Source of the DNA: a virus
Lineage: Duplodnaviria > Caudoviricetes
Direction: 5' to 3' (one strand)
IMG/VR virus record: IMGVR_UViG_3300033146_005800
Coordinates: 1-55,252 of that record
DNA: 55,252 nt
Within the stretch, counting starts at the first letter, position 1. Every line of letters starts with the position of its first letter. The notes below the pieces were generated by a model. The model saw only the letters and a program-made list of their open reading frames with translations. It did no database searches and was not told where the DNA came from. The position numbers were made by a program, and so were the translations under genes. Positions 9,712 through 55,252 of this stretch are shown here, in pieces.

Positions 9712-9766
9712 AATTTACTACCTCCTAGATTTTGCAGCTCTTCAAGTTTTTTAACTATTAAAAAAT

Positions 9767-10294: not shown

Positions 10295-10297
10295 CTT

Positions 10298-11242: not shown

Positions 11243-11243
11243 A

Positions 11244-15227: not shown

Positions 15228-15242
15228 TTTGATTCATCCTCC

Positions 15243-16010: not shown

Positions 16011-16058
16011 TGATTCACTCCTTTTAAATTAAATTAATTATAATAACTTTTAGTATTT

Positions 16059-16856: not shown

Positions 16857-16859
16857 TTC

Positions 16860-17531: not shown

Positions 17532-17551
17532 TTTAATGTCCTCCTTAAATT

Positions 17552-21736: not shown

Positions 21737-21835
21737 TTACTTATTTTCCAATTGTAATGACAATATTCAAAATATTATTTTCCGTTATAGTATCTCATAT
21801 GAATAAATTAAACATATTAGATTTTAGTATTTTTA

Positions 21836-24324: not shown

Positions 24325-26049
24325 TTATGTTATTGCTTTAATCAAATCTCCAACAATTACAAATGTTTCATCTTCCGAAGCATAAACTATACTATCCGAG
24401 GATACAGTCAGTGGAATTCCTGAAATGTCGTTAATTACTGCATCTTTTAAATATAAAGAAGTGAATGGTTCCGCCCTAATGAATAATTGTTTATCTTTAG
24501 GAGTTACATCCGGGATAGGAAGAATAACCTCAACGTTATTTAATTTACCATAACCAGATTGTCTGGTAGACAATCTATTAATTAAAGCATTTTTTATGTA
24601 ACTATCTATATTCTTTCTAAGTTTTAGACACATATAAGAGGAAAATGGACCATGTCTAGTATCACCAATTCTATTATATGGCAAGTAATGTTGATGCAAT
24701 AATTTTGAACCAAACAATTGAATTAAAAAATATAAAAAATTTGGACTCTCTTTGTCTATCTGCACTTTTTTAATATTACGAAAAAGATACTCAATAGATA
24801 ACAAATCGGGATATTCAGAATCTATGAAATCAAATGCTTCTGTTTCACTCATAACCGGTGCCAAAGCTGATAAATATCTAATAAACTCATCCAAATCAGC
24901 AGTATTTCTTAGTATATGCTTCTCTCTACTAGAATAATTAGCCCTGCCAGCCAGGAGATACATCCTCTGATTAACAGTTAAATCTTCCCAATTACTTAGA
25001 TCATTTTCAATTTCTATAGGTGGTGGACACATCTGACATACAGAATCAAAAGTTTCAGAGTCTATATTTTGCAAAACCAAGTATTGATAGAATCTTTTCT
25101 CATTATCACATGATTCCGACTGATTGAATAAACTTCCGGTGTTCAAAAGTGCTCTAGATATTATAATGGACCAGTAATCAGATTTACTAGGGTATATCAT
25201 ATCCGGAAGTAAAGTTAAATTATTAAGCAGATAGTCCTTATCCTGTAGTCCTCCAAATAATAAAGTTTTGGATACCATTAAAATGGTCTTTCTGACATTT
25301 GGATGCAAATAATTAAAAAATCTAGACAATTCTCCGGCAAAACCTGGATGATCCTCCTTACGTATAGTTTTTAATTTATATTCCTCTTGAACAGGTTCCT
25401 TTTGAAATGACTCTTTTTCTAAAGAATCTTGTTCGTTAAATATCCGTGGATACGTCGTTGGATTTTGAAATTGAATTGTTTTTTTAATATTTAACGCAAA
25501 AGGACTTTTTTTAATATTCCAAGGTCGCACTCTAGAATTATTTGTTGGAACCTTTGGTTTTATAACCCTTTCCATAACCGGCTCTATAACTTTTTTAGGG
25601 GGTATCGACTCATAAACATCCTGATTATACTTCAAAGAGGGTTGAATATAAGTTTTCAAAGTAACTTCAACAATTTTATTCTTTGTAAGATAGTAGGCAT
25701 AGAGATTCTGAAATAATCGTTGTCTTTTGTGTCTGTAAGTTTCCAATATGTCTGATCTAGTATATCTATTGTAAATAACCGGAATACTTCTTGGACTTTT
25801 GGAAAAGAGACTTTGTGTGAGTTCTTTAACATTTTTACTGCTCAAAAACTTGCGTAAAAGCTTATGTCCTGGAATTCTGGTAAGATATGGTAGGGTATTT
25901 AATTCTGCTTCCTGTATCATTTTCTTAACTTTTTCTATGTCAACATGATATTTTCTAACAAAAACACCATTAGGACCCCTAACCGCACGTAAAACTGGAA
26001 CCAATCCAGGACTGGAAGGATCAAAACCTTTAAGAAGATCTTCTGACAT
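24325..26049 (-). CDS. Hypothetical tagged protein with possible degenerate C-terminal ART-like domain
   Basis: N-terminal LVPVLRAVRGPNGVFVRKYHV tag in register with the tags of the ART array; weak C-terminal similarity to the 512-aa and 685-aa ART proteins. Confidence 0.55.
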   Translation of the reverse strand: MSEDLLKGFDPSSPGLVPVLRAVRGPNGVFVRKYHVDIEKVKKMIQEAELNTLPYLTRIPGHKLLRKFLSSKNVKELTQSLFSKSPRSIPVIYNRYTRSDILETYRHKRQRLFQNLYAYYLTKNKIVEVTLKTYIQPSLKYNQDVYESIPPKKVIEPVMERVIKPKVPTNNSRVRPWNIKKSPFALNIKKTIQFQNPTTYPRIFNEQDSLEKESFQKEPVQEEYKLKTIRKEDHPGFAGELSRFFNYLHPNVRKTILMVSKTLLFGGLQDKDYLLNNLTLLPDMIYPSKSDYWSIIISRALLNTGSLFNQSESCDNEKRFYQYLVLQNIDSETFDSVCQMCPPPIEIENDLSNWEDLTVNQRMYLLAGRANYSSREKHILRNTADLDEFIRYLSALAPVMSETEAFDFIDSEYPDLLSIEYLFRNIKKVQIDKESPNFLYFLIQLFGSKLLHQHYLPYNRIGDTRHGPFSSYMCLKLRKNIDSYIKNALINRLSTRQSGYGKLNNVEVILPIPDVTPKDKQLFIRAEPFTSLYLKDAVINDISGIPLTVSSDSIVYASEDETFVIVGDLIKAIT

Positions 26050-29456: not shown

Positions 29457-30893
29457 TTATCTACGTGCACCATGAAAAGATGGTGACTGACTTTTCAAAC
29501 AAGTTTTATTTATCATCAACATAAATTTTTTCTGTGCAGGATCTGTTATACCTAGGGCATCAGTAAATGAATTGAACCAATCTCTCATAACATCGGAATC
29601 TGGAGTATTTTCATGTAAAGCACGTAATGGACTCCGAGAATAGGCACTTGGACCACTAGTAGAAGATCTTCTATAACGAGGAGTCCCAGGTAATTGTATA
29701 AGTCCGCTATTTCTGTTTCGATTTGGTGCAATCGGAAAATTATCTAAATCTTTACCAAACCCAACTAAATCATTAGTCATTTTACCAACCAAAGATAACT
29801 GATTAGCTAAAAAAGCTGAATTGGAAATTGCTCCTGGATGTCTATACTCCATTCTTTTCGTAGCACTATCCATACGAAAATTATTTCTACCTTCATCATA
29901 TGAACCAGAAACACCCAAATAATCCTGACTATTGTACCTATCACCATGTCTACCCATCATATCCATTATTAATCCAACACTATTCAAATAAGATGAGGCA
30001 TTGGGTCTATTATTGAAATTCAATTCTGGAATAGTCGTACTAATATGCATACCAGCTGACTTGTCCATAATTCTATCATTTGGATGTATAAGTCCTTCTT
30101 TTTCCCATGCAGCGAATTGCATATCTGCCGCCATTATTAAGTTGGATTGCGGTGTAGCACCCAAAACAACTTCCTGTGGATTTCTGCCTGGTCTACTTTG
30201 TATAGATCCATCGTAGTAGGCTTTATATGAGGTTGAACTACGACCCATATCATAACTCATCATACTAGCAATATCTACTCCGAAATGCTTCTTTACAGGA
30301 TTCCTGGTTAAAGAATTAAAACTAATGTCAATTGCATCCTTCTGAAAACGACCCTCATACTCAATAGAAAAATAATTTGGTGACATTCCAAAATTTGGCA
30401 TAAACACACCTTTTCTGGAACTCAATGGAAGAATGGCACCATGACGTAGAGTTCTTTTTAGATTATCTCTACCCAAAGGTTCACCTTTTAAATTGGTTAT
30501 CACCATATTATCCAGATCCAAACCTTTAGTGAATCTAGATCTATTAATATTAGAAATTTCCCCCCTAAAATCCTGTAATCTGGTAGCATTCAGAGCCGAA
30601 CCTTTACCAAAAGCCCATGATTCTGCTCTAAACTTTTTGAATCCAGGTTCATAAGTCATCATGGTTAACTTATCACCTTCTATACCAGTTATATAAGGAA
30701 CTGAGGATACTTTATCGGGCATTTGGTAATCAAGTCCTGCTTTAGCCTCAAAGAACCTTTTATTGGACAAACGATCAACATTTTTCATATTAGTAGTTGA
30801 GGCAGCATCAAAAGCTGCAGGATTAGACTCAACATGGACACTATGTTTCTCTAATAATGCACTGGTGTACATGGACATCTCATAAGTGTTCAT
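29457..30893 (-). CDS. COOH-NH2 ligase type 2 (amidoligase-like), divergent paralog
   Basis: FSIEYEG, YDGSI...QEVV, SAGMHIS and MEYRHPG motifs. Confidence 0.7.
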   Translation of the reverse strand: MNTYEMSMYTSALLEKHSVHVESNPAAFDAASTTNMKNVDRLSNKRFFEAKAGLDYQMPDKVSSVPYITGIEGDKLTMMTYEPGFKKFRAESWAFGKGSALNATRLQDFRGEISNINRSRFTKGLDLDNMVITNLKGEPLGRDNLKRTLRHGAILPLSSRKGVFMPNFGMSPNYFSIEYEGRFQKDAIDISFNSLTRNPVKKHFGVDIASMMSYDMGRSSTSYKAYYDGSIQSRPGRNPQEVVLGATPQSNLIMAADMQFAAWEKEGLIHPNDRIMDKSAGMHISTTIPELNFNNRPNASSYLNSVGLIMDMMGRHGDRYNSQDYLGVSGSYDEGRNNFRMDSATKRMEYRHPGAISNSAFLANQLSLVGKMTNDLVGFGKDLDNFPIAPNRNRNSGLIQLPGTPRYRRSSTSGPSAYSRSPLRALHENTPDSDVMRDWFNSFTDALGITDPAQKKFMLMINKTCLKSQSPSFHGARR

Positions 30894-30920: not shown

Positions 30921-33900
30921 CTAACCCTCAAATCTGCCCCCATCCTGACTACATTTTTGTTGCATTTCCCATAAAAATTGTTGACTTTTCGGATTTTTTA
31001 TTCCAAGAAAGTCATTAACAACCTGTGCAAATGCATTTCTATTTCCCCCAAAATTGCTAGAAGTAGGGGGAATAAGTACACCCGTGTGTGCAAAAGCACC
31101 ACTCCTCATGGCTCCTTGATAAATGTCTCCGGCTAATTTAGAACTAATTGCCATAGATGCCAATACATGATCCCCTCCAGGTATATGCATTGGGGCTCTA
31201 TATTCCATAACCCCAGCCAATTGAAGTTTGTGCATACCAATAGATTTATACTTAGCTAATTTTCCCGGATGGTCATCCATGTGCATGGAAACTGGATAGT
31301 AATGTTTTCCTTTGTTTCTATAAAAATCATATTCATTCATTCCACTATTTCCAGCTGGACGAAATCTGGAAATAGATTGTGACCACATTTGTCTGCCATG
31401 TTCGGTGGCAGGGGATTGTCTGGCTTGTCTATTTAATCTTTCCGGCTGAACAGTAAGATTGTAAGGACTAAAGCCCCCTCCATAAGTATCTACAGGACCA
31501 GTCCAGGCTTTGTATCTCCTGTCCGGAGAAGTCATTCTTTTTACAAGATCTTCATTAAGTCGCATGTAGTCTGTAGTAAATTTAAATCCATCCTTCCGAT
31601 GATTCTCCGGTATAGACCCCATATTTACATGAACACCAGACGGATCCCATCTATTAGGACCTCTATGAACTGCAGGAACGTCACCCATAGCTTTCAATCC
31701 TTCACCCATCAGGTATCCTGCTTTAAAAGCCCTAGTACCAGACATTATTGGACTAATATATTCTAATCCACCCCCATATATAGATGGATCTCTAACGGTC
31801 TCGTAATCACCGTTAAAGCCCATTTTATCAATGTCATAACCGTAATCTCGTCTTATATTGTTATGTAATTGACGCATTGATTCAGTTCTGGAACTTTCGA
31901 TCTCTATACCAAATGTAAAATCCGGATTGGTATAACTAGGCAGAAAAATGGCATCTCGTCCTTTAATCGGAACAATATAACCATTACCCATGGCATCATT
32001 CATCGAAAGATTAGTATTAGTCAATCTCCAATTGTCGGGATTAGGATCCATATCTGGAGTTGGTGTACGATGCAAACTTTCACTTATGTTTCGACGACCA
32101 AAATGAGGTCTATTAAAGGAACTTGGCTGATTTCCAGCTAAACCAGACGCAATATTATAAGCAGCTGTCACAGGATTATCTAACATCCATAATTGTCCAC
32201 CTTCACTGGATGTGCCAATAATAGCTCCACCCAACATTGCCCTTTTCTTCATTTCTGGCGATATATTTGGATCATCTAAAGCCATAACTTTGAAATCAAA
32301 ATTATTCTCAGATAAGTATCCCTTACCTACATTATTATAAAACTTTCTATCTGCATCAGAAGTACGACCAAAACTATTTTGAATTTCTCTAAGTTTATTT
32401 ACCGCATCGAGTGTACCCCTAGTAGCAGCTATATTATCGACAGACATTGAATGTTCACTTCCACCTATTGGGAATCTTTTCTCAATACTTTCAAAATCCC
32501 GCTGAGATAATTCATGAACATTATTGGTATTTACCTCGTCAGCAGGTTGTCCATGAAGAAGTCTCTCATCGTATTCACGTCTGGAAGCTTCATCAAAATC
32601 ATCAAAAGTTATATTATAAGCACCATCTTCTGTAAAAGGAGATGGTGAGGAATCGAAAATGTCTGTCTGTGAATCAGACAAACTTTCAACATTGTCTCTA
32701 CTAATAGGAGTATCAGGATCTAGAGACTCGGCAAAATCGCGAATAGCGTCATCCATAGAAGTTTCTATGAATTGTGAACCCCCCTCTACGTTATTTCTAT
32801 TTATACGATCATTCCAAGTCTCCTCAGCAGTCAGATTACCCATATCTGGCTGATTAGAAGTAGATGAACTAAGTTCACTAGCTTCAGGTCGATTTACTGC
32901 GTCACTAGTACGTATACTTCCTAAACTGGAATGTACTCTCTCATTTGAGATTTCTCCGGTATCTCTATCCATATTATGACTAGTAACATCATAACCATGA
33001 ATACTCGCTAATTGACTAGCCATTGTTCCAGATCGTGTTTCTTCCAAGGAACTCATAACATCTTCATCATTAATAAGAGATGATTGAGGTACACCATATC
33101 TATTATCAAGGTCTATACCTTCTAAACCTATTGTACTGGGATTTAATTGTTGTCTATTAATGTAACTATCATCAAAATCCTGCAAACCCTGATAAAGAGT
33201 ATCGGCAGAATGTTTAGTTCTCATTAACGAATCCATAATGGTTCTGTGCATTTCTGGATCCGCATTAGTGCCGGCGGGACCAAGTGCTTCTATAAGATTA
33301 TTCGCAGAAGGACCCATTCTTCTTCTTAAATTGGAATCTTGCCAACTTTGAGGATTATTCTGTATACCACTAAATTCACCGCCTTGAGGTCGCCCATAAA
33401 GGTCATGTAAACCCATGAATTGGGACATATGTAACATGCTTCTATCTGCAAAATCCGTAGACCTATCCGGAGATTGTGCTAAAAATTGTGAGGCAAATTG
33501 AAAATCAGTTTTATTTCTCAATTTGCCATCGGCAAGGGTATTCAACATTTCAGGATTACCCATTGCCATAACACCCATATAAGAATTAAAAGCATGTAAC
33601 GCCCTAATAGATTTTTTATGGGCCAAATTAGATTGATCAGATCCATATAAGTTATCTTTAGAAGTTACTATATGAAATCTTCCAACAGCGGGATTTTGAA
33701 ACTGCATCGAGGGTACACTGGATCGCATTGAGGCATACGTAGCGGCAGAATTCATATGTCGCTCCGCTTGTGCAAAATTATTAGATGCACGACCTACAGT
33801 CATAGAGGTGATTAAAGCATTGGAAGTCTGATTAAAAGCGACAACACTTATGTCACTTGAATTAACCAAAGGTGATGTAAAATGTTCTAATTCCTGTATA

Positions 33901-33974
33901 AATCCCCTTAGGCTATTAGAACTTTGATGTGCTCCTCTTGCATTTTGATAAAAGTAATCAAAAAATCCTGACAT
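30921..33974 (-). CDS. Large protein with C-terminal COOH-NH2 ligase type 2 (amidoligase) domain
   Basis: FTFGIEIE, RDPSI...GLEYISPI, SGVHVN, KY-x2-I and MEYR; about 650-aa M/N/S/D-rich N-terminal region. Confidence 0.82.
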   Translation of the reverse strand: MSGFFDYFYQNARGAHQSSNSLRGFIQELEHFTSPLVNSSDISVVAFNQTSNALITSMTVGRASNNFAQAERHMNSAATYASMRSSVPSMQFQNPAVGRFHIVTSKDNLYGSDQSNLAHKKSIRALHAFNSYMGVMAMGNPEMLNTLADGKLRNKTDFQFASQFLAQSPDRSTDFADRSMLHMSQFMGLHDLYGRPQGGEFSGIQNNPQSWQDSNLRRRMGPSANNLIEALGPAGTNADPEMHRTIMDSLMRTKHSADTLYQGLQDFDDSYINRQQLNPSTIGLEGIDLDNRYGVPQSSLINDEDVMSSLEETRSGTMASQLASIHGYDVTSHNMDRDTGEISNERVHSSLGSIRTSDAVNRPEASELSSSTSNQPDMGNLTAEETWNDRINRNNVEGGSQFIETSMDDAIRDFAESLDPDTPISRDNVESLSDSQTDIFDSSPSPFTEDGAYNITFDDFDEASRREYDERLLHGQPADEVNTNNVHELSQRDFESIEKRFPIGGSEHSMSVDNIAATRGTLDAVNKLREIQNSFGRTSDADRKFYNNVGKGYLSENNFDFKVMALDDPNISPEMKKRAMLGGAIIGTSSEGGQLWMLDNPVTAAYNIASGLAGNQPSSFNRPHFGRRNISESLHRTPTPDMDPNPDNWRLTNTNLSMNDAMGNGYIVPIKGRDAIFLPSYTNPDFTFGIEIESSRTESMRQLHNNIRRDYGYDIDKMGFNGDYETVRDPSIYGGGLEYISPIMSGTRAFKAGYLMGEGLKAMGDVPAVHRGPNRWDPSGVHVNMGSIPENHRKDGFKFTTDYMRLNEDLVKRMTSPDRRYKAWTGPVDTYGGGFSPYNLTVQPERLNRQARQSPATEHGRQMWSQSISRFRPAGNSGMNEYDFYRNKGKHYYPVSMHMDDHPGKLAKYKSIGMHKLQLAGVMEYRAPMHIPGGDHVLASMAISSKLAGDIYQGAMRSGAFAHTGVLIPPTSSNFGGNRNAFAQVVNDFLGIKNPKSQQFLWEMQQKCSQDGGRFEG

Positions 33975-33986
33975 ATTAGTAAACCA

Positions 33987-34883
33987 TTACTCTTTTTTTG
34001 CAGAAATAAAATCCTTCAATTTCTTAATTAGACGCTTTCTCCTCGAACCTATCTTATCAAAAGCAACGTTCTTATCAATGGAAGAATTGGATATCTTATC
34101 AGACAATATTCTTAGAATCATAATAGAAGACAAAGGAATATTGTCACCAAAAACATCATCACCGAGTTCCAAAGTAGACAAATCTACGTGTTCTGTAAGA
34201 AAAAGATCCAAATCCACACGCATCAAAGCAAAATCATTATGTTTTTCAATAATGGAATCAATAAAATTAATTAATTCGTTATTGCGTGCATCTGCTGTTT
34301 GTTGATTAGGAATTTCTAATGTTGAGTCAATGGATTCAACAGAAATTGTATCCTCTTCCGATTCAACAGTATTCTTTTTATGAAAAGTCTCGTCATATAG
34401 ACTTAGTAAAAAAGACTGCTCTATAGTAACGTTCCAAGAAGCCGGAATTCTAATATCCCAAACCGACATTTTCTTATTACATTGAATACTGAAATTTTTA
34501 ACGCATTGTTTGATTCTTAATTTTATGTTTTCTTTAAATAGTTGCTTTCTAATTTCTTGACGTTCTGACTCGATAGATTTCACGTCAATATCCAAAAGAC
34601 TATCTAAATTTGCACCATTAGGTGTTATCTGATTGTTATTGAATGCAAGTTCCGGAGTTCTATTCAACTTTCGATTTAACCAAATTACCATATCTGAAAC
34701 AGAAGAATTTAAGACAGACTCCTCTAAAACTATTCCCTGTCTTAACAAATTACTTTTAATTTTAACAAAAGTTGCTAGTTCTACCGGACTAATGATGTAA
34801 ATATTAGTCCAATAGTGTTTCAATTTTCTAGCAAGAGACTCTACAGACATACCAGACAGATCTAAAGACTCATCAAGACTCAT
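33987..34883 (-). CDS. Hypothetical protein
   Basis: 298-aa ORF with GAGG RBS. Confidence 0.7.
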   Translation of the reverse strand: MSLDESLDLSGMSVESLARKLKHYWTNIYIISPVELATFVKIKSNLLRQGIVLEESVLNSSVSDMVIWLNRKLNRTPELAFNNNQITPNGANLDSLLDIDVKSIESERQEIRKQLFKENIKLRIKQCVKNFSIQCNKKMSVWDIRIPASWNVTIEQSFLLSLYDETFHKKNTVESEEDTISVESIDSTLEIPNQQTADARNNELINFIDSIIEKHNDFALMRVDLDLFLTEHVDLSTLELGDDVFGDNIPLSSIMILRILSDKISNSSIDKNVAFDKIGSRRKRLIKKLKDFISAKKE

Positions 34884-45552: not shown

Positions 45553-46222
45553 AATTTTTATTCATTGTACTGCTTACCCCCATCAGGATATATTTGGGGA
45601 TTCATTAGTAGAAACTATAACTAAATGGCACAAAGCTAGGGGATGGAGCACTATTGGTTATCATGGAGTTATAGATTGTCAAGGACTTTACATTCCAGGT
45701 AGAGATTTTGAAAAAACACCTGCGGCCCAAGGAGGTCACAATACTGGAACCCTGGCATTCTCATTGGACGGGTTACATATACATCAGTTCAACCAAAAAC
45801 AATTTACAACATTACTTTTTCTGGCAGACCAATTAGATTCACTTTATGGAAATACCATAACATATCATGGACATTGTGAAGTCAACCCTAATAAATCATG
45901 TCCAGTATTCAATTATAAAAAAGTTCTTGGTATAAGTACGGATGGAAAAAGACAACACAATGCTTCCAGCATAAATATACCTGCAGATGATACAATATAT
46001 CAATTTCCTAATTATGACATACAAGAAAAAAGAACCTTATCCAAAACTAGTATAGGAAATGATGTTCGATTTATTCAAGAACTTCTCAAAATTAAAGTAG
46101 ATGGAATTTTTGGATCTGAAACTTGTAAAGCTGTCATAAAATTTCAAATAAAAAACAAATTAATCCCTGATGGAATTGTTGGACCAAATACATGGCTATC
46201 ACTTCTAAAATCAAAGGAATAA
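45518..46222 (+). CDS. Endolysin: N-acetylmuramoyl-L-alanine amidase (T7 lysozyme-like) with C-terminal peptidoglycan-binding domain
   Basis: IFIHCTA, WH-x2-RGW-x2-IGYH, GR, HGH...K-x-CP; DG-x-FG-x2-T-x2-AV-x2-FQ...DGIVG-x2-TW. Confidence 0.92.
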   Translation: MKIEKPKRSINKIFIHCTAYPHQDIFGDSLVETITKWHKARGWSTIGYHGVIDCQGLYIPGRDFEKTPAAQGGHNTGTLAFSLDGLHIHQFNQKQFTTLLFLADQLDSLYGNTITYHGHCEVNPNKSCPVFNYKKVLGISTDGKRQHNASSINIPADDTIYQFPNYDIQEKRTLSKTSIGNDVRFIQELLKIKVDGIFGSETCKAVIKFQIKNKLIPDGIVGPNTWLSLLKSKE

Positions 46223-46342
46223 TGCTTACAATTTTCCTTTTACTTAAAAATGGATTCAATTTAAGAAAAACCAATAGAGATCTGAAGAAAAAGATACTAA
46301 AAGTTAATAATAAAATCACAAATATTATAGGAAATAAGTAAA

Positions 46343-46615
46343 ATGAATGAAGAAATCATAACATTTTGTCCCGACGTTGGTGGTGCATGTATGGGTAATA
46401 AATGCAGTGCATACTCAAAGGGTTTGCAGATTGATATTATAACAAATACAAATACCATAAATCAAATGATCTCTATAACCGACACAGAAGAAAACGATCT
46501 GATAAATCTAAGATTAGGAATGGATTGTAATATATGTAAAAAGTATGATAAATTCGTGACTCAAGAATCTCATGACATGTTCAATGATGTTATAGACAAT
46601 TTTAAGAAAAGATAA
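46343..46615 (+). CDS. Small Cys-rich hypothetical protein
   Basis: CP-x5-C-x4-C...C-x2-C; preceded by ATACTAAA and an RBS. Confidence 0.65.
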   Translation: MNEEIITFCPDVGGACMGNKCSAYSKGLQIDIITNTNTINQMISITDTEENDLINLRLGMDCNICKKYDKFVTQESHDMFNDVIDNFKKR

Positions 46616-46706
46616 CATAGTGTATCTAATGTGTACATATCTTTCTAATAATTAAGTTTTAGGAAGAAAGAGTATTGTTTCTAAAATAACAACGTCTTGA
46701 AACATT

Positions 46707-46907
46707 CTAATCTTCACTCCTAAGTCCTCCATTGAAATATTCACAATTTTCCCAATTTTCTATTTGTTTATATTTGGAAGGAATAATTTTTGGATAAGAT
46801 ACACAACCCAATTTATCTGGAAACTTATTGTCGCATTTAGAACACTGATTAAAAACCAGAGAATCTATATTATCCCATGTAAATCTGGAATCATCTCCTC
46901 TTATCAT
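46707..46907 (-). CDS. Small Cys4 protein, candidate ART partner or immunity protein
   Basis: CSKC...C-x2-YP-x2-IP...C-x-YF; starts 14 bp after the ART stop, with AGGGG RBS. Confidence 0.65.
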   Translation of the reverse strand: MIRGDDSRFTWDNIDSLVFNQCSKCDNKFPDKLGCVSYPKIIPSKYKQIENWENCEYFNGGLRSED

Positions 46908-46921
46908 AAGTAACCCCTTTA

Positions 46922-47890
46922 TTATTTTTTAGGTCTTCTGATAACTCTTTTCTTAATCTTAGTCTTAGGTTTAACTCTTTCAGTAGATTTTGGTGCTGCC
47001 ATTTGTGATTCATTTGGCATAGCCCGTAAATGAATGGATCTCATTTTAAACATGTCAGGATTATGATTGCCGTCGGTCATCATTGCGGCCATAGCAGTAT
47101 AATCCTGCATTGCTTTTGGCAATTTATTCGAATCCTTCTGCATATCTATAATTTCATTCTGCAAAACTTCGAATTGCATACCTCTAGGCAGCAAAAGCTC
47201 AAATTCGGAAATATTAACAGGAAGAGCTTTTGTCCCTTTTGGAAGCTCAACCTTAAACATACTTCCAAATCTCAACAAACCATCAGTTTTACTATCTCTC
47301 CACATAAAATTAGTAGAAATATCAGGTTTAACCGTTGTAGACATATACCCATTATCCTGAAAAATCTCACCAACCTTCAATTCTCTTCCTAAAGTCTCGT
47401 GAAAATCTCGTTTAGTGCCTCTAACAGCGATAGTGTCCTTTGTTAAGCCATCAGCCTTATCTATAGCCGAATCTAAGAGTCTTATATCAGGATCATCGAC
47501 ATGTTGCTTAAGATTATCTCGTAATTTTTCATTAAAACCAATTTCATTAACATAATCTCGCATTACATTATATTCCATATCCGTATAATCACCGGAAATT
47601 GGAAAACCATCCGAGTAATCCTCAAAACCCCAATCTTTGGCATCAGCTTCCCTAAAATCATTATCCATTTTCTCTACTATAGATAATCTTTTCTCATCGG
47701 GGGATTTATTACTTATATTAGAATCGTGATTCTTTCCCGTATTACTTCTATCGGACACATCCTCCATTCTTTGATGTTGTTCAACATCCTCCACTTTATC
47801 TTTTGTAACTCGTAAATGTTGAGATACATCAATCTTTTCTGAAGACTTACTCTTAATAACTTTAGGCTTTAATTTTTTTGAACCTTTCAA
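46922..47890 (-). CDS. VIP2/Alt-like ADP-ribosyltransferase with type-B N-terminal tag
   Basis: Y...N-x2-LR, LDSAI, AVRG, GYMSTT, LPKGT, EFELLLPRG (R-S-ExE); TTG start after GAGGTG. Confidence 0.9.
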   Translation of the reverse strand: MKGSKKLKPKVIKSKSSEKIDVSQHLRVTKDKVEDVEQHQRMEDVSDRSNTGKNHDSNISNKSPDEKRLSIVEKMDNDFREADAKDWGFEDYSDGFPISGDYTDMEYNVMRDYVNEIGFNEKLRDNLKQHVDDPDIRLLDSAIDKADGLTKDTIAVRGTKRDFHETLGRELKVGEIFQDNGYMSTTVKPDISTNFMWRDSKTDGLLRFGSMFKVELPKGTKALPVNISEFELLLPRGMQFEVLQNEIIDMQKDSNKLPKAMQDYTAMAAMMTDGNHNPDMFKMRSIHLRAMPNESQMAAPKSTERVKPKTKIKKRVIRRPKK

Positions 47891-47946
47891 TGAAACACCT
47901 CATTAAAATAATTTAATAATGTTTTAAATTTTAAAAGAGGGTAATA

Positions 47947-49485
47947 TTAAGGTAATTCTTGTACTTTCACTTCCCTTTCACCTTCAGACATAACAATATG
48001 TTCACTCTCTTTACCACCAAATGACCAAAATTGATTAACACCTAAAATATCATCCTTTGGTACACTTGCTTGCATAACTACACCAATACCACCTCTCATA
48101 TCCGCTGAATCCCGACCAAAACTTTTAGCTATAAATTCTGAAGACGTCCAAGAGGATATAGAATTAGAATCCGCAAATTGTGTACCATCAGGATCAGGAC
48201 GTGTTAATTCCTTTTTATTGGTTCCTCTAAACAATTTCACAGATTCAACACCTGGATGTTGTTTGTCTAAAATTGCCCTAGAAAGAGCTTTGCTAAGTAC
48301 TAAACCCCTTTTTAAATTGGACTTAATTTTATCAGGCAAATTGTCTGCTTTACCTTTCAAATTATCTTTATTACTCATTCCATGATTGGAAATAACCTCA
48401 CCACCGTAGGTATTAGCTACAAGCTGCTTTAACACTGATCCTCCATCAGAACTACTAGAATCCAACCAATCCTGCATATAATCAGAGAATGAACCTGCAT
48501 TTTCCGAGAATACATGATCTAATTCGTTCATATGTTTATCCAACAAATTATCTGGTAACGTTTTACCAAAATGATCCACTAGTTCTTTGTGTGTCTTTTT
48601 ATCCTTAATTCCACTCAATAATTCCTTAATCTTGCCCTTTTCTTTAGTCAAAGAATGATCCGGAAATTCTTTCTGTGCCTCCGAATAACTCATCTTCTTG
48701 ATAAGAGAGTTTTTAAACTGATCAGCTCCATCAATACCTTCGGAAATGAGTTGTTTTAAATCCTGTTTATCCATCCTGTTTGCAGCAAATTCAATATCAC
48801 GATGTCTACGTATCTCTCCAGATCGCAAAGCGTCTTTAGTACCATCTGAACCTTCCATATTTCGTATTACAGAAGTCCTGGTAGAATTGTACTGAAAAGG
48901 TGACAAGTCGTCTCTATCTTTATTCTTCTTAATGATATCCAATATCTTTAATCTACCCGTATCATCTGTACTACCAGATAAACTTTCCAACACACTAGAA
49001 GACGTCTCATCGTTATAAATCATTTTATTTGCTAAAGTCTCGTTGGCTCTTTCTGCAACACGTGACCTAACCTCATCAAATTTACTTGTTGACAATTTTT
49101 CTAACGTCGCATTATCTGCCCTATCAGCTATTTGTAAATTGTGTCTGGAAGTTGGAATATTTGCATCTGCATACTTTCCCAACTTATCCACTGGAGCATT
49201 TTTAATATCCTTAAGAAGACGATCACTGGCAATATAAAAAGCGTCCTCACGCGCCATATCTTCTTTAGTCATAGGAGAACTCTTTTCCGCTGATAGATAA
49301 TCCTTTACAGAGGTAATGTCTGTTACAGTTTGCTCAGAAAGAGAATCCTTTTTCTTTTTGGGACGTAGTCTACCTCCATTCTTTTCATTGCTTACATGTT
49401 GCATTCTAATATGTGGTTCTTTCTTAACTGAATTAACCGTAGTTGGTTTAACAGGCAATTTTTTTAAATTTCCCTTTCCAGACAT
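47947..49485 (-). CDS. ART-fold protein with type-A tag and HEAT-like helical repeats
   Basis: KLFRGT, SISSWTSS-x2-IA-x2-F, VPKDDIL, ESEHIV. Confidence 0.8.
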   Translation of the reverse strand: MSGKGNLKKLPVKPTTVNSVKKEPHIRMQHVSNEKNGGRLRPKKKKDSLSEQTVTDITSVKDYLSAEKSSPMTKEDMAREDAFYIASDRLLKDIKNAPVDKLGKYADANIPTSRHNLQIADRADNATLEKLSTSKFDEVRSRVAERANETLANKMIYNDETSSSVLESLSGSTDDTGRLKILDIIKKNKDRDDLSPFQYNSTRTSVIRNMEGSDGTKDALRSGEIRRHRDIEFAANRMDKQDLKQLISEGIDGADQFKNSLIKKMSYSEAQKEFPDHSLTKEKGKIKELLSGIKDKKTHKELVDHFGKTLPDNLLDKHMNELDHVFSENAGSFSDYMQDWLDSSSSDGGSVLKQLVANTYGGEVISNHGMSNKDNLKGKADNLPDKIKSNLKRGLVLSKALSRAILDKQHPGVESVKLFRGTNKKELTRPDPDGTQFADSNSISSWTSSEFIAKSFGRDSADMRGGIGVVMQASVPKDDILGVNQFWSFGGKESEHIVMSEGEREVKVQELP

Positions 49486-49622
49486 TAAGGTTTATACCCC
49501 CAATAAATTTCAAAAGGAGTGAATTCAGCATTACACTCAGTACATGTAAATTGAACTTTCGTAAAACAATCACATTTTATTCTATGATTATGATTACATT
49601 TTTTACAAGTCCACGTTAACAT
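49485..49622 (-). CDS. 45-aa Zn-ribbon protein translationally coupled to the ART gene
   Basis: MLTWTCKKCNHNHRIKCDCFTKVQFTCTECNAEFTPFEIYWGYKP; AGAGG RBS; TAATG overlap with the next ATG. Confidence 0.65.
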   Translation of the reverse strand: MLTWTCKKCNHNHRIKCDCFTKVQFTCTECNAEFTPFEIYWGYKP

Positions 49623-49629
49623 AACACAT

Positions 49630-49688
49630 CCTCTAATAATTTATAATTTTAATATTACAAAGATTACATAAAGTATGTTTTATAATCA
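49630..49688 (-). promoter_or_regulatory. Duplicated promoter/RBS block, copy 1
   Basis: CCTCTAATAATTTAYAATTTT...TATTACA...TAAAKTATGTTTTATARTCA shared with 51730-51780. Confidence 0.7.
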
Positions 49689-49880
49689 ATATTGAACGAT
49701 TTTCTTACGCAATCTTTTGCCCTTTTGTTTTTTAACTTTACCTGATGGCCTCAACGAATCGAAATTATTTATAGTTCCAACGGGTCTAATTCGAGAACTA
49801 TCAACAACCTTCAATTTCGTATCATCCAAAATATACTCAAAATCATGACCCATTTTTGATGGAATAACAAGAATATCCAT
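49686..49880 (-). CDS. Small basic protein
   Basis: 64 aa with AGGGG RBS after the 592-aa ART; RIRP/LRP...KK tail resembles the basic segments in the ART proteins. Confidence 0.55.
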   Translation of the reverse strand: MDILVIPSKMGHDFEYILDDTKLKVVDSSRIRPVGTINNFDSLRPSGKVKKQKGKRLRKKIVQY

Positions 49881-49891
49881 TTAAGTAACCC

Positions 49892-51670
49892 CTAAAAAAT
49901 TGCTAAAACTTCTTCTTCTCCAGTTAAACCAGCGGAATAAAATAAATCTGTGGCATCATGAAATTTATCGTCAAGGTAATGAAATATTCTTCCATCATCT
50001 ATCAATCTCTTGGCATCATAATCCATTTTTATACCAAAAGTAGTTGCTCTTGCCAGATCCTTATCGATATGATTACCAAAATTGTCATACTTAGTTGAAC
50101 TAGCTTGTATACCAGTAATATATTTCTCCATATTGGCAGGAATATTAATATCCATATCATAGTTCTTTTTAAACCAGTCCTTAAACTTATTTAAACTCAT
50201 ACCATTTTTCGCATTCATATATCCAGGATTTTTGGCTTCGTAATTGTGATTATCTCCATTTAATCGCTTATCCATTGCCTCATGAATTTGAATCTGATTA
50301 GAAAAAGAATTGGCTATAACATCAGACTTAGATAAACTCATCATTCCACCATCTAAGGTAATTGATCCTCCTGGATCTCTATCAAAAACAAATCCTCTAT
50401 GCAAAGTATTTTCTGCATTAAGTCTAGAACCATCCTTTCTGGATGCTCCCATTATGTAATCAGGATTTTTGGACAATACATCCTGAGTTTTAGCATAATG
50501 TGATTTCATAGAATCCGTAACAGATTTTGGTATTGATGATTTGCCATTAACTGGATATATTCCTCTAGTGCCATTGGAAAAAGCCTCTAATTTAGATTTA
50601 TTCGCAAAAGAAGTCTTTTGCTTCAAACGTCCCTGAAAAGCCTCATTAGTACGGGAAGTATTACTTTGTAAATGTGGAAACACATCACCAACAGATGCCA
50701 ACATAACGGTGGAATATTCCTCTAAATTTCTATCCCATCCAGAAATCAAAAGATCAGGATTAGCAACATCTGGAAGAGCAGAACCTTGAGGATCATAATG
50801 TTTATTGTCCTCCAAGTCAAACATAGACATTACATCTTCTCCTCTATCATTCCTATAGCCAATCCGAATCTCCATCTCATCCGCTAAATAATACAATCTT
50901 TCCGGATCTTTGGACTCAATGGTCTTCCACCTATGATCAGAGGAACCTTTTTTTGCCTGATCAAGTCTCCTATCAAAAATTTTAGATTCTCTATCAACCA
51001 CCAAAACTTCGTCAGCAATAAAATCCTCATCAACATTATCTAACATGCCATCTAAAATTGCCTGATTAAATTCCCCGACAGTATTGCTAAAAACATCATT
51101 ATCTCCAAATTCCTTGGCTGTCTTCTCATCCATCATCTTCTTATTAAATTTATCCCATGCACCAATCCTCTGATCAATCGGCACCTCCTGAACTTTCTTT
51201 GCCATAGCAACGTAAGCCTGACCTTTAACTTTCACATTAGCACTATTATCTACCAAAAGTTTATTGTCATCTCCAAATGCCAACTTACTCAAAAGATTCA
51301 TGGAATCTTTATCGTTAAGCTCCTTATCCATAACGGCTCCTAAAGATCCCTTAAACAAATCTGAGGAAGTTGCATCATGTGCATCGTAAAGTTGAATCAT
51401 AGCATTTGCTCTTGCCTCAGGACTCATATCTGAATTTTTATCAACGTGATCCTTCAATCCAATTGTAAAATCCTTCAAGTAGGAATTGGAATCTTTATTA
51501 TCTTTAGAAGGGGCTTTAAAAAATCCTTCCTCATTCTTTTTGACTTTCGGTCTAATTCTTTTGTCATCAGAAGTATTTACGTGCTGGTCTCTAATATGTA
51601 CTTTCTTTTTTAGAGGATTTACGACCGTCGGTTTAGTTGGTAACTGCTTTATTTTTCCTTTTCTAGACAT
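49892..51670 (-). CDS. ART-fold protein with type-A tag and an insertion in the catalytic domain
   Basis: TLHRGF, MMSLSKS-x2-IA-x2-F, terminal GEEEVL. Confidence 0.7.
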   Translation of the reverse strand: MSRKGKIKQLPTKPTVVNPLKKKVHIRDQHVNTSDDKRIRPKVKKNEEGFFKAPSKDNKDSNSYLKDFTIGLKDHVDKNSDMSPEARANAMIQLYDAHDATSSDLFKGSLGAVMDKELNDKDSMNLLSKLAFGDDNKLLVDNSANVKVKGQAYVAMAKKVQEVPIDQRIGAWDKFNKKMMDEKTAKEFGDNDVFSNTVGEFNQAILDGMLDNVDEDFIADEVLVVDRESKIFDRRLDQAKKGSSDHRWKTIESKDPERLYYLADEMEIRIGYRNDRGEDVMSMFDLEDNKHYDPQGSALPDVANPDLLISGWDRNLEEYSTVMLASVGDVFPHLQSNTSRTNEAFQGRLKQKTSFANKSKLEAFSNGTRGIYPVNGKSSIPKSVTDSMKSHYAKTQDVLSKNPDYIMGASRKDGSRLNAENTLHRGFVFDRDPGGSITLDGGMMSLSKSDVIANSFSNQIQIHEAMDKRLNGDNHNYEAKNPGYMNAKNGMSLNKFKDWFKKNYDMDINIPANMEKYITGIQASSTKYDNFGNHIDKDLARATTFGIKMDYDAKRLIDDGRIFHYLDDKFHDATDLFYSAGLTGEEEVLAIF

Positions 51671-51729
51671 GAATAACTCACAATTTTGAAATTACGTAAA
51701 GAATGTAAAGACTACTTAAAATTCCATCC

Positions 51730-51780
51730 CCTCTAATAATTTACAATTTTTAGTATTACATAAATTATGTTTTATAGTCA
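51730..51780 (-). promoter_or_regulatory. Duplicated promoter/RBS block, copy 2 (contains ATACTAAA)
   Basis: Near-identical to 49630-49688 apart from a 9-nt indel and a few substitutions. Confidence 0.7.
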
Positions 51781-52013
51781 TTACAATGTACATCTTTATA
51801 AGTTGCTTGGATAAAAAGTACAATAACCTGCTTTAAACCAGTTTACTAAAATTATGGCAGGCTTTTGACATTTATAAACTAACATCATATCTAAATAATT
51901 ATCGAAATCACAAATTCACCATGTTCATTTTCCAAAAGACTATCAGGAACTTATAATTCTTTAATAATTTGAATTAAAACATAGTACAAAGATATATAAA
52001 ATAGGAATTTTAT

Positions 52014-54071
52014 ATGGGAAAAATCGGTTCAATCAAAAAGAAAATAAAACCAAAGGTTAAAAAAGAAGTTACTGTCATTGGACATACAAGGATTACCAAA
52101 AAAGGTGACGTTCAACAAGTAGATACACATCAGAAAACAATGGATGTATCTATCGAACAAGATGATTTAAAAGTCAAAAGAAAACAACAAACAGGACCCT
52201 TAAAAAAAGGAAAAGGGAAAAAAACAGGATTATCAAAAGAAGAAGTTCAACAGAAAACATTTCAAGATGTTGACATTTCAAAAATTCCAGACAATCTCAA
52301 AAGTACTTATCTATCTATGCAATCTGAAAAAACTATGGACAGAGTTAATGCCGTCGAACAATTAGACGAATTAGGTTTAGAACTGGCTATGAAAGATTCT
52401 GAAAGTATAGTTCGAGACAAAATCCCAAGTAATCGCAATGCTACTCAAGACCAAATAATGAGATTAAGACAAGATTCAGATTTAATGGTAAGACGGGAGG
52501 CATTCTCAAATATAAAAAATAGAGAAGTATTAAAACAACCTTATTGGGTCGACGGGAAAAAATTTAATTCGATAAGAGAAGAAAATAATATGCAACTAAA
52601 TAATGTATACTTGAAGAGATTTCCTGAAGAGGTCCTTTCTCTACGTAACAGTGGAGAAATGGATATTAATGATCGGAAATTAGCATCGGTTATAACACCA
52701 GAAGATGCCATGAAACCCTTAACCACTAAAGGAGGAAAAAAACTTAAGAACATATTTGAACATCCCGATGAATTGGTAATAATAGAAGCGGCCAAAAATA
52801 GAAGACTTGGTTCCATGATTCATAGAATAAATTCCGACATTAAACCAAAGGATGAAGGATATGATATGATAGGCAAGTTGGAATTAAAAGATGCTAAATA
52901 CAAAAATATGGATCCAAAACATCTGGCAGAAGCTATACAAAAGGAACCGTTAAGTTTCTTTAGAGAAGTCATGGCTAAAAGAATGTCAGAACAAGGAAGA
53001 ATAGATCTAATCAAATCCACCGATAATCCTTTAGTAAAGAAGTCATTGTTGGATCAGATATCCAACCGAACATCGAAACAATTAAGCGAAGGTGAGTTCA
53101 AGAATGATCCACTTATTCAAAGAAGAGACGCTTATCGCAAATTGGAAAATACAAATGGTTTAGAAACCGATCAGCAACTTCAAGATCATTTTACAAAAAA
53201 TTTCCCAAATGTTACTAAATTGAATTCCGAAACTGCTGGAAGATTACAAAATGAAGACGACCATCAAGTATTAAAATGGGCCTCAGAAAATGGCGGAGAT
53301 TTTGATGAACCAATGAGTAAAATAGAATGGAAAATAGAAGGTTGGCACAAAAAAGCCATAAATGATTTCAACGATCCTAAAAAAGCTATGGAAAAAGCTA
53401 TGGAATATAGTGGATCAGATGCAGACAATTTGCAAAAAATCATAGATAAAGCTGCACCAAAATTCACACAAGAATATGTGCAAAATGGTTGGTTAGAATC
53501 TAGTAATGGACATGGCGCAGCTCTATTAAAAATGCAAGCTGGAGGAAAAATACACAAACATCAAAGAAAATTCGACTCTACCTCAACATTAAGTCATGAA
53601 CAAATACAAGAAAAATGGAATCAATTATCATCCAAACAAAAACAAAATCTAGATAGAGGTTACCAAGTCTCTAAGTCATTAACTCAAGTCGTACTTAATA
53701 AAGCCTTTCCCAATCAAGATTCTATAAAACTATATAGAGGAACAAGTATGAAAGAAGTTGTAGGATCTGGAAATAATATTTCTGCACAATCTAATCCTTT
53801 AAGTAGTTGGACAGAAAAACCTAAAATAGCTGGCAATTTTGCTAAATTTAATGCAGGTGGTGATGAAAAAAATCCAAATGTTGCTATAATGTCTGCCGAT
53901 ATACCAAAAAAAGATATCTTTCTTTCAAATATATTTGGTGCTATGTTCAAAACTTTTTCCAACGGTGAATATGTATTGGAAGCTAAAAATAAATTAAGAA
54001 AAATTAAAGCTGAATATACAGGTCCCTCCGAAGATGTACCAGAAAATATGTATGAAGATGAACAATGGTAA
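52014..54071 (+). CDS. ART-fold protein with type-B tag and HEAT-like repeats
   Basis: D-x4-VR repeats; KLYRGT, NPLSSWTE-x3-IA-x2-F, IPKKDIF, NGEYVL; C-terminal ~200 aa clearly paralogous to ORF 47947..49485. Confidence 0.8.
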   Translation: MGKIGSIKKKIKPKVKKEVTVIGHTRITKKGDVQQVDTHQKTMDVSIEQDDLKVKRKQQTGPLKKGKGKKTGLSKEEVQQKTFQDVDISKIPDNLKSTYLSMQSEKTMDRVNAVEQLDELGLELAMKDSESIVRDKIPSNRNATQDQIMRLRQDSDLMVRREAFSNIKNREVLKQPYWVDGKKFNSIREENNMQLNNVYLKRFPEEVLSLRNSGEMDINDRKLASVITPEDAMKPLTTKGGKKLKNIFEHPDELVIIEAAKNRRLGSMIHRINSDIKPKDEGYDMIGKLELKDAKYKNMDPKHLAEAIQKEPLSFFREVMAKRMSEQGRIDLIKSTDNPLVKKSLLDQISNRTSKQLSEGEFKNDPLIQRRDAYRKLENTNGLETDQQLQDHFTKNFPNVTKLNSETAGRLQNEDDHQVLKWASENGGDFDEPMSKIEWKIEGWHKKAINDFNDPKKAMEKAMEYSGSDADNLQKIIDKAAPKFTQEYVQNGWLESSNGHGAALLKMQAGGKIHKHQRKFDSTSTLSHEQIQEKWNQLSSKQKQNLDRGYQVSKSLTQVVLNKAFPNQDSIKLYRGTSMKEVVGSGNNISAQSNPLSSWTEKPKIAGNFAKFNAGGDEKNPNVAIMSADIPKKDIFLSNIFGAMFKTFSNGEYVLEAKNKLRKIKAEYTGPSEDVPENMYEDEQW

Positions 54072-54155
54072 TTAAACAATTCTTCCAATAATTTATTTAT
54101 GACAAACGGGAAGTACTTACATCGTAATAAAATTTATGTCTAAGGATTTTAATAT

Positions 54156-54173
54156 GGGCCGCAGGCCCTTTTT
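54156..54173 (+). terminator. Intrinsic terminator after the last ART gene
   Basis: GGGCC-GCA-GGCCC followed by TTTTT. Confidence 0.65.
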
Positions 54174-54565
54174 ACAACCCTCCCTTCATAAAGACCATAT
54201 CTTTATATACCTATAAGGATTGACCTCCCTTACTGTCTAAGTAAGAGGACTTGTAGGCCGATTTTTTATTTCCTTGCCATTAAAGTATTTGATATGTGCT
54301 GTTTGTTGGTATTTTGTGGTATTTTGTGGTATTGGTCTTCGACGATTTGCTTATAGGCCGATTTTTTTACAACTAGTTTTTTGGTTTCCAATTCGTATTC
54401 TAGGGGCTGTTGTCCCGTTATTTTGGCTAGGGGGAGGACAATTCATCGCAGTAGGTCTTTTTCATCCAGAAATTGAAAAATTGCTTTTCTTTTTTCGTGA
54501 GCAGAACTTTCAGGTATTAGCAGAAGGTTTGAAGAAAGCTGCAATGCAAACATTTGACTCCGTGA

Positions 54566-54727
54566 GGTGTGTCTGTGATCTCAGTGGTGTGATCTCAGTG
54601 GTCAGTGGGTGTGGTCAGTGGGTGTGGTCAGTGGTTGTGGTCAGTGGTTGTGGTGTGATCAGTGGTGTGATCTCTGTGGTGTGATCTCTGTGGGCAGTGC
54701 CTATAAATGGGGGGTTATGGGGGGTGG
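54566..54727. repeat. GT-rich short-repeat block
   Basis: Repeated GTGATCTC(A/T)GTGGT and CAGTGG(G/T)TGTGGT units, ending in two G6 runs. Confidence 0.9.
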
Positions 54728-54770
54728 TACCTTTAATATAATTTAATAATTAACGTTTTTTATTATAAAT

Positions 54771-55252
54771 TATATTAAAGCCCCCATTATTTTATTTTAT
54801 ATTTTATATTATATTTTATATTTTATATTTTATATTATATTTTATATTTTATATTTTATATTATATTTTATATTTTATATTTTATATTATATTTTATATT
54901 ATATTTTATATTATATTTTATATTTTATATTTTATATTATATTTTATATTTTATATTAAAGCCCCCATTATATTTTATATTAAAGCCCCCATTATATTTT
55001 ATATTAAAGCCCCCATTATATTATATTATATTAAAGCCCCCATTATATTATATTATATTATATTATATTAAAGCCCCCATTATATTATATTATATTATAT
55101 TATATTATATTATATTATATTATATTATATTAAATTAAAACCCCCATTATATTATATTATATTAAAGCCCCCCATTATATTATATTATATTATATTAAAG
55201 CCCCCATTATATTATATTATATTAAAGCCCCCATTATATTATATTATATTAT
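54771..55252. repeat. AT microsatellite (ATATT/ATATTTT) punctuated by ten AAAGCCCCCATTAT-type cores; runs off the window end
   Basis: C-runs at about 54781, 54962, 54986, 55010, 55037, 55074, 55141, 55168, 55201 and 55228. Confidence 0.95.

Follow-up and report, generated by a model that had tools for sequence, protein, structure and literature searches.

Bacteriophage T4's ADP-ribosyltransferases (ARTs) Alt, ModA and ModB are the model for viral rewiring of host transcription and translation by ADP-ribosylation. The four adjacent genes described here come from an uncultured lytic contractile-tailed phage and extend this known phage strategy of host protein modification. Together with three small open reading frames (ORFs), they lie at positions 46707-54071 of the IMG/VR record IMGVR_UViG_3300033146_005800. 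The analysed window is the whole record, a linear sequence of 55,252 bp with a CheckV completeness of about 46%. The large proteins are referred to as A322, B512, C592 and D685 (322, 512, 592 and 685 amino acids (aa), respectively) and the small ones as s66, s45 and s64. As far as can be judged from the sequence, the four genes probably form a cluster of mosaic ART-type effectors that are made in the infected cell along with the replication genes. Each gene would be built of three parts: a basic leader of ~35-50 aa, a long middle region belonging to no family (short in A322) and a C-terminal mono-ADP-ribosyltransferase domain of the R-S-E class.

According to the accessible text of PMC9697503, ModA and ModB are early proteins of T4, while alt is a late gene and the virion contains its product. 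Parts of PMC9503650 and PMC7824862 describe an enrichment of ARTs in myoviruses, and phages with several ARTs are known. The commonest viral R-S-E families are Alt/VIP2 and Mod, and many ARTs of myoviruses are uncharacterised (accessible sections of PMC9503650). The only mention of DraT-like ARTs in these sections concerns certain Aeromonas phages, where they form a toxin-antitoxin pair.

The cluster resembles the ModA/ModB system in several respects. ART genes are adjacent in a lytic myovirus, the logic of the R-G, S-x-S-helix and E-x-E motifs is the same, and the promoter class here is likely not late. A profile of the Mod family aligns from R-G to S-T-S in all four families of the array. 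However, the Mod proteins are single-domain proteins of ~200-225 aa, whereas the present proteins are 322-685 aa long and carry leaders and long middle regions. The similarity is at the superfamily level only (hhalign probability 3-53%), and the catalytic domains here are those of PF03496, of a DRAT-like group and of an orphan family. The likeness to Alt lies in the large size of the protein, in the N-terminal propeptide of Alt (accessible text of PMC5694885) and in the use of ARTs as host-takeover enzymes. The array differs from Alt in that its context is not a head-gene context and in that tblastn finds no match among 50,697 phage records for A322, B512, D685 or P0003, a relative of C592 that was used as its stand-in.

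Two other systems are comparable. B512 is similar to DraT (PF07357) in that it passes the Pfam cut-off, and D685 in that its model matches a DRAT cluster. Here, though, the setting is that of phage effectors rather than nitrogenase regulation, the N-terminal extensions are long, and no DraG/ARH-type hydrolase or macro domain is present among the 48 proteins scanned with Pfam or PHROGs (several window ORFs being unscanned and about half of the genome missing). Polymorphic and MuF-type phage toxins combine a constant N-terminal delivery module with a variable C-terminal enzyme and a small downstream gene; the array is similar in that its N-terminal modules are interchanged between ART domains of different kinds and small ORFs lie downstream. 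In contrast to these, the array has no MuF or known delivery domain, its leaders are just ~35-50 aa long, and there are two leader types instead of one. The array is set apart by the presence of four diverged ART-type genes side by side, the shuffling of leaders across catalytic families, the N-x-E motif in one member of the DraT-like pair and an orphan ART-like family. A literature search on ARTs with a capsid-targeting sequence (CTS), and on tandem or paralogous injected phage ARTs, returned no title suggesting such an array (supplements lay outside its scope). The practical value of the array is moderate, because it stays throughout within what is already known of how phage ART effectors work.

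Catalytic domains of A322, B512 and D685

The four large and three small ORFs of the original prediction were all found at its coordinates, and the twelve motifs that it quoted are all present in A322, B512, C592 and D685. Its claim of four diversified R-S-E ARTs stands for A322 and B512 by profile and for D685 by paralogy; C592 is a probable member only.

A322 (46922-47890, minus strand) starts with TTG and is a clear member of the ADPrib_exo_Tox family, of the Alt/VIP2/C3-like kind. It consists of a type-1 leader (residues 1-50, nucleotides (nt) 47741-47890), a short linker, the ART domain (residues 86-256, nt 47123-47635) and a basic C-terminal tail. Its AVRG, MSTT and EFE motifs begin at residues 155, 183 and 229, which gives R157, S184-T-T and E229-x-E231. 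The match to Pfam PF03496 has an E-value of 5.1e-11 and 42.7 bits against a cut-off of 23.4, and covers profile positions 3-186 of 196; the search within the record itself gives 6.5e-13 and 43.5 bits. T4 Alt is in PF03496 as well. A322 also matches phrog_3895, an ART exoenzyme toxin family (8.4e-5), and the PDB sequence search gives a weak match to Exoenzyme T only (E 0.032). When aligned by the hidden Markov model (HMM) of the Mod family, A322 shows R-G/S-T-T and E-x-E-LLLP-x-G, and the spacing of R, S-T-[ST] and E-x-E is normal. The complete R / S-T-S / E-x-E sets of A322 and B512 suggest that both may be arginine-directed protein ARTs using nicotinamide adenine dinucleotide (NAD+).

B512 (47947-49485, minus strand) and D685 (52014-54071, plus strand) carry related catalytic domains. 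In B512, a type-2 leader (nt 49336-49485) and a middle region of ~250 aa of no known family precede a DRAT-like domain at residues 285-498 (nt 47992-48648). The motifs LFRG 418, SSWT 444 and ESE 493 supply R420, S444-S-W-T and E493-x-E495. This domain matches PF07357 (DRAT) with 1.2e-6 and 28.4 bits, over the cut-off of 25, along profile positions 34-247 of 256, and with 30.1 bits in the search of the record itself. D685 has a type-1 leader (nt 52014-52163), a middle region of ~430 aa and a DRAT-like domain at residues ~480-669 (nt 53451-54020). Its motifs LYRG 573, SSWT 597 and NGE 650 correspond to R575, S597-S-W-T and N650-G-E652. The C-terminal ~200 residues of D685 match B512 with a BLASTP E-value of 1e-19 (30% identity over 205 aa; tblastn 2.3e-19). 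The ESM Atlas model of D685 resembles that of a DRAT cluster with a template modelling (TM) score of 0.69 over residues 480-669, and that of a viral Phage_Mu_F cluster with a TM score of 0.64; members of the latter cluster also carry DRAT (37%) or ADPrib_exo_Tox (27%).

Three results qualify the assignment of D685. Its matches to PF07357 score 18.6, 20.7 and 19.7 bits, which is under the cut-off of 25, and the match ends at residue 611. The segment with the E-x-E motif lies outside both this match and the BLASTP alignment to B512. The AlphaFold2 model of the domain, made from a two-row alignment, has a predicted local distance difference test (pLDDT) score of 46.2, and a Foldseek search of the PDB with it returned 0 matches at E <= 0.001, a result without meaning for so poor a model. 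D685 is thus regarded as a relative of B512 and not as a certified DRAT member, as the BLASTP match of 1e-19 is accompanied by bit scores under the cut-off. PDB sequence searches with B512, with D685 and with the profile of the pair returned nothing relevant.

The last member of the array had been predicted to lack the first Glu of E-x-E, and N650-G-E652 agrees with this by positional inference, the segment being outside the alignments as stated. By position, D685 keeps R, S and the second Glu and has Asn where the first Glu is expected, which may change the acceptor or weaken the activity. The pair, one member of which is without the first Glu, is useful for the study of acceptor specificity. 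It can also be proposed that only A322 and B512 are active transferases and that D685, C592 or both are pseudo-enzymes or have other chemistry (NAD+ hydrolysis or binding only), being kept for target binding or regulation. The N-G-E motif, the scores under the DRAT cut-off and an E-x-E segment that cannot be aligned to B512 are consistent with such a role for D685. Against this, D685 retains R and S-x-S, its second (catalytic) Glu is present by position, and its codon usage is that of a normal coding gene.

An orphan ART-like domain in C592

C592 (49892-51670, minus strand) combines a type-2 leader (nt 51521-51670) and a ~320-aa middle of no known family with an orphan, ART-like C-terminal domain at residues 373-592 (nt 49895-50554). 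The motifs LHRG 423, MSLS 444 and EEE 585 give R425-G, S445-L-S447 and E585-E-E587, and YDAK..DGRIF is a further element of the domain. When 1.84 billion representatives were scanned in full with HMMER, the sole match to C592 was the 218-aa protein P0003 (E 1.8e-5), which aligns along the entire C-terminal domain (3e-16). A search with the profile of the C592 family added the partial relative P0004, and P0003 and P0004 were the only relatives among 997 candidates. G-G-x-x-S-x-S...A-x-S-F, Y-D-A-K....D-G-R-I-F and the C-terminal E-x-E..I-F are invariant in all three members of the family, and R-G is kept in both members that are long enough to reach there.

The comparison with known ARTs was made by hhalign against a profile of nine Mod-family members, T4 ModA and ModB and seven diverse homologues. 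The C592 family obtains a score of 32.1 (P 4e-4, probability 35%) over 44 columns, which run from R-G through the S-T-S helix. The B512/D685 pair scores 34.5 (P 1.4e-4) and A322 scores 21.6 (P 0.018). Twenty unrelated window proteins that served as negative controls reach 18.1 at most (P 0.066 or weaker), and the reversed C592 family reaches 12.4 (P 0.49). As its score is on par with those of the proven members of the array, C592 appears to resemble the ART core as much as they do, weak as the similarity is. The same comparison among the three tiny families of the window is not significant. The feature neighbours of the C592 domain in the ESM Atlas include ART clusters (0.90-0.93), which is a lead only.

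These results suggest that C592 is probably a divergent ART, a conclusion against which several findings weigh. C592 and P0003 have no ART match in Pfam, PHROGs, NCBIfam or PDB sequence searches, and neither do P0004 in PHROGs or the C592-family profile in the PDB. In C592, E-x-E lies 140 residues past S-x-S and only 5 residues short of the C-terminus, which means that the strands located behind this motif in ordinary ARTs are either absent or elsewhere. In a MAFFT alignment, the E-Q-E of ModA and ModB falls opposite the invariant D-A-K of the C592 family; block-wise hhalign slightly prefers the C-terminal E-x-E (P 0.07 vs 0.44), which is not significant. The AlphaFold2 model of the C592 domain, made from a three-row alignment, has a pLDDT of 42.6, and with values of 42.6 and 46.2 the models of the two domains confirm no fold. 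Matches of P0003 to myosin light chains in the PDB (E 0.06-0.13) look like chance and were rejected. PF01129 and PF18760 have no match in the record.

The same findings raise the question of whether the domain is an ART at all, its R, S-x-S and E-x-E being a coincidence in an unrelated orphan domain. The lack of matches in curated libraries and in PDB sequence searches, the hhalign probability of just 35% over 44 columns, ESM Atlas structure matches with TM scores under 0.4 and the unusable AlphaFold model are all compatible with such a coincidence. On the other hand, the hhalign score of C592 equals those of the proven ART domains of the array and exceeds all 20 controls, and the aligned stretch is exactly that from R-G to the S-T-S helix. 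This stretch is also the best local match of C592 to A322 (without R-G) and to the B512/D685 pair (S-x-S helix only). Feature neighbours in the ESM Atlas include ART clusters, the leader type of C592 is common to an ART gene, and C592 sits amid ART genes. A coincidence of motifs is accordingly considered a possible but doubtful explanation.

The proposal that the activity is confined to A322 and B512 applies to C592 as well, where the position of E-x-E is atypical and one alignment sets Lys at the catalytic Glu site. However, R and S-x-S are retained in C592 as they are in D685, the E-x-E is invariant in all three family members, and the codon usage of C592 is normally coding. Taking both proteins together, the loss or replacement of the transferase activity appears less probable than its retention. 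If C592 is a divergent ART, as preferred here, then its three-member orphan family may extend the ART superfamily.

Leaders, gene order and small ORFs

The N-termini of the four proteins are basic, with 12-15 Lys or Arg in the first 50 residues, and form two pairs. In searches of 412 six-frame segments, the leaders of B512 and C592 match each other with a phmmer E-value of 3e-11 and those of A322 and D685 with 0.002-0.013. The Smith-Waterman score is reached by 0/2000 shuffles in either pair. For pairs across the two types, the score is reached by 62-476 of 2000 shuffles and is not significant. A single leader common to all four proteins was rejected statistically, and the four-sequence HMM search that might suggest it is circular. 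When each leader was left out in turn, C592 was recovered with E 2.5e-4 and D685 at E 0.1 only, and A322 and B512 were not recovered; one leader for all four proteins is for this reason not claimed. The alignment of the four leaders is too variable for searching.

The two leader types are distributed over the catalytic domains as follows. Type 1 is found on the PF03496 domain of A322 and on the DRAT-like domain of D685, and type 2 on the DRAT-like domain of B512 and on the orphan domain of C592. Since the two leader pairs do not coincide with the catalytic families, the genes are mosaic and their domains have undergone shuffling. Of the 31 leader codons compared between B512 and C592, 20 specify identical residues, and 11 of the 20 differ synonymously; selection thus acts on the leader peptide, and the similarity is not due to a recent gene conversion. 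With its two leader types and three catalytic families, the array is a natural domain-shuffling experiment.

The DNA upstream of these two genes is related as well. A block of 54-63 nt upstream of C592 (51730-51783, minus strand) is duplicated upstream of s45 and B512 (49630-49691, minus strand). Both blocks are promoter-like; the first contains the 10-mer AATACTAAAA at 51748-51757 and the second its one-mismatch form AATATTAAAA at 49647-49656. The local alignment score of 36 is reached by 0/1000 shuffles, and 20 other upstream regions score 9-23.5. The pairing of leaders, the DRAT-like domain on both B512 and D685 and the duplicated promoter block would be explained if the four genes arose by duplication and domain shuffling. 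In the block upstream of C592, the Shine-Dalgarno (SD) motif and ATG that open s45 in the other copy open an ORF of only three codons (51683-51698, minus strand). This ORF resembles what would be left of a gene like s45.

The order of the genes on the minus strand is C592, s64, s45, B512, A322, s66, with gaps of 11, 63, -1, 56 and 14 nt. D685 is divergent from them and separated by a gap of 343 nt. A GC hairpin followed by a T run, which is terminator-like, is at 54156-54173 (plus strand), 85 nt past the D685 stop. Its position is suggestive only, because a scan of the region for hairpins found 5 terminator-like sites vs 4.0 expected. An SD-like motif precedes all seven ORFs and is weak for C592; in A322, it is GAGGTG before the TTG start. 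All seven ORFs score best in the annotated frame by codon usage, the reference being 32 training genes with a mean log-odds of 0.337 and a minimum of 0.209 per codon.

The small ORFs look coding. The log-odds of s66, s45 and s64 are 0.276, 0.200 and 0.385, in each case the best of six frames, and the SD-like motifs are AGGGG for s66 and AGAGGA for s45, with one present for s64 as well. The 64-aa s64 (49686-49880, minus strand) has a basic C-terminus. The 45-aa s45 (49485-49622, minus strand) has two C-x-x-C pairs in a zinc-ribbon-like arrangement and also C17 and C19; a one-base overlap between its stop and the start of B512 makes translational coupling of the two probable. The 66-aa s66 (46707-46907, minus strand) has C-x-x-C plus two more Cys. 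Scans of Pfam and other libraries assign no family to s66 and s64, and zinc-finger matches of s45 are below threshold only. The description of the small genes as interleaved with the large ones is loose. Both s64 and s45 are situated between C592 and B512, B512 and A322 have no small gene between them, s66 follows A322, and D685 is on the opposite strand. A 90-aa Cys-rich ORF with five Cys (46343-46615, plus strand) is convergent with s66. It scores 0.251 for codon usage, more than in any of the other five frames, and has only a weak PHROG match to a family of unknown function (8.5e-4).

Small proteins next to ARTs might be their cognate inhibitors, immunity proteins or chaperones, as in ART toxin-antitoxin and polymorphic-toxin cassettes, and the accessible part of PMC9503650 describes a small number of phage toxin-antitoxin pairs with an ART. 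The tight spacing of the small ORFs in the operon, the overlap of the s45 stop with the B512 start and the vestigial three-codon ORF at the equivalent spot upstream of C592 would fit such partners. A one-to-one pairing is lacking, however: the interval from C592 to B512 holds two small ORFs, that from B512 to A322 holds none, and D685 is accompanied by none. Moreover, phage genomes commonly contain small zinc-ribbon ORFs, and s45, s64 and s66 have no family and no homologue in the library scans. It is thus rather unlikely that the small ORFs have this function.

Expression, packaging and genome setting

The 10-mer AATACTAAAA occurs in 7 exact copies in the window (at 442, 11375, 16048, 21822, 24265, 30894 and 51748) against 0.78 expected, and 0/100 shuffles reach 7. 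Six of them lie within ~135 nt upstream of an ORF, in sense orientation. The ORFs behind them are those of an exonuclease, a clamp-loader-like protein, a primase-like protein, the DUF488 gene, one ORF of unknown function (outside the profile scans) and C592. Upstream of the tail sheath gene, neither an exact copy nor one with a single mismatch is present. The 10-mer is a candidate promoter element of this phage.

Since the minus-strand operon has the 10-mer of the replication genes, the preferred reading is that its enzymes are made in the infected cell. They would be made alongside the replication proteins and, in the manner of ModA and ModB, may modify proteins of the host to bring about takeover or counter-defence. 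Each enzyme would owe its target or location to its middle region and leader. The support for this timing is reduced by the fact that D685 is without the 10-mer, and that the promoter assignment is based on one 10-mer and on two structural genes for contrast in a window of ~46% of the genome. Synthesis in the cell with the replication genes is thus weakly favoured over packaging.

The array had been described as an arsenal of injected enzymes, and this part of the original prediction finds no support in the gene context. Neither a fusion to MuF or portal nor a head gene lies nearby, and the 10-mer of the C592 operon fits an early, ModA/ModB-like synthesis. Nevertheless, an Alt-like arsenal can be envisaged, in which the proteins are made late, the leaders are capsid-targeting propeptides that direct them into the prohead, and injection together with the DNA lets the enzymes act ahead of phage gene expression. 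T4 Alt itself has an N-terminal propeptide and is a packaged ART, and in SPN3US, a phiKZ relative, the conserved N-termini of the diverged paralogues gp53 and gp54 are described as CTS-like (accessible text of PMC5694885). About 44% of phage ARTs are in contexts that suggest packaging, according to the available part of PMC9503650. In the present array, too, the leaders are conserved as peptides, the rest of each protein having diverged, and B512, C592 and D685 (512-685 aa) are far larger than ModA and ModB (200 and 207 aa). The tail sheath is phiKZ-like, and phiKZ-like phages are a group known for ejected head proteins. One of the ESM Atlas neighbours of D685 is the viral Phage_Mu_F cluster whose members partly carry DRAT or ADPrib_exo_Tox.

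Several observations are at odds with such packaging. The genes next to the array encode a gyrase-like protein, an amidase endolysin and replication proteins. The 10-mer of the operon otherwise stands mostly upstream of replication genes, and the tail sheath gene is without it. Prohead protease sites follow the rule S/A/G-x-E, a part of which is given in the accessible text of PMC5694885, and only 2/4 proteins have an S-x-E site of this type where the aligned leader ends. The leader HMM matched no other ORF of the window; the head genes lie outside the window. An Alt-like arsenal is regarded as the less plausible course of events, yet one of appreciable weight.

A more far-reaching model can be formulated by combining several of these elements. 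The phage would possess a polymorphic effector system, in which two interchangeable basic leaders, serving as capsid-targeting or injection signals, are shuffled onto ART warheads. C592, P0003 and P0004 would represent an unrecognised ART family with the catalytic strand moved to the extreme C-terminus, and the small zinc-ribbon and basic proteins would be cognate inhibitors or chaperones in the producing cell. This combination is improbable. Should the leaders be true targeting signals, they would make compact tags for cargo delivery.

The genome to which the array belongs is a mixture of lineages, in that a phiKZ-like sheath is accompanied by T4-like replication genes, and no close relative is present in the collections searched. 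The tail sheath gene (2809-4482, minus strand) is 43-47% identical to the sheaths of phiKZ-like jumbo phages. The T4-style replication genes (within 6492-23191) encode a family-B polymerase, a clamp, a clamp-loader-like ATPase, a DnaB-like helicase, a primase zinc finger, a UvsX-like recombinase and a single-stranded-DNA-binding protein (SSB). The window also encodes two type-II topoisomerase genes and the amidase endolysin.

Searches for relatives of the array were negative. Megablast of window positions 46000-55252 found no match among the 50,697 phage records. In IMG/VR, no relative was found for the gyrase-like neighbour protein, for C592, for B512 or for the type-2 leader. The B512/D685 profile has no relative in IMG/VR and GTDB genomes, the C592-family profile none in IMG/VR and JGI metagenomes, and the type-1 leader none in JGI metagenomes. 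Word-based protein searches returned only the query itself among 1252 candidates for the B512 C-terminal domain, and 0/1343 candidates for the B512/D685 profile. A search of sequencing reads yielded one DNA run that shares 0.08 of the words, and no RNA run is listed.

Some other features of the window may be mentioned. Between the UvsX-like and SSB-like genes lies a gene (7658-8548, minus strand) for a protein with a caspase-family peptidase C14 domain (Pfam 2.6e-32), which is unusual inside a phage replication module. A 329-aa protein (18233-19222, minus strand) has a PTPS/QueD-like domain in its C-terminal third (1.6e-30), and a DUF488-N3a protein is encoded at 23835-24197 (minus strand); the two may point to nucleotide or DNA modification chemistry. 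Four consecutive-to-near ORFs of 574, 478, 1017 and 298 aa (24325-26049, 29457-30893, 30921-33974 and 33987-34883, minus strand) have no Pfam or PHROG match, and tblastn of the 1017-aa ORF against the 50,697 phage records gave no match. The right end of the contig (54300-55252) is non-coding and rich in repeats. Units of 13-14 nt of the GTGGTCAGTGGGT type at 54574-54693 are followed by AT-rich units, each ending in AAAGCCCCCA, up to the last base. This repeat-rich region may be a genome end or an origin.

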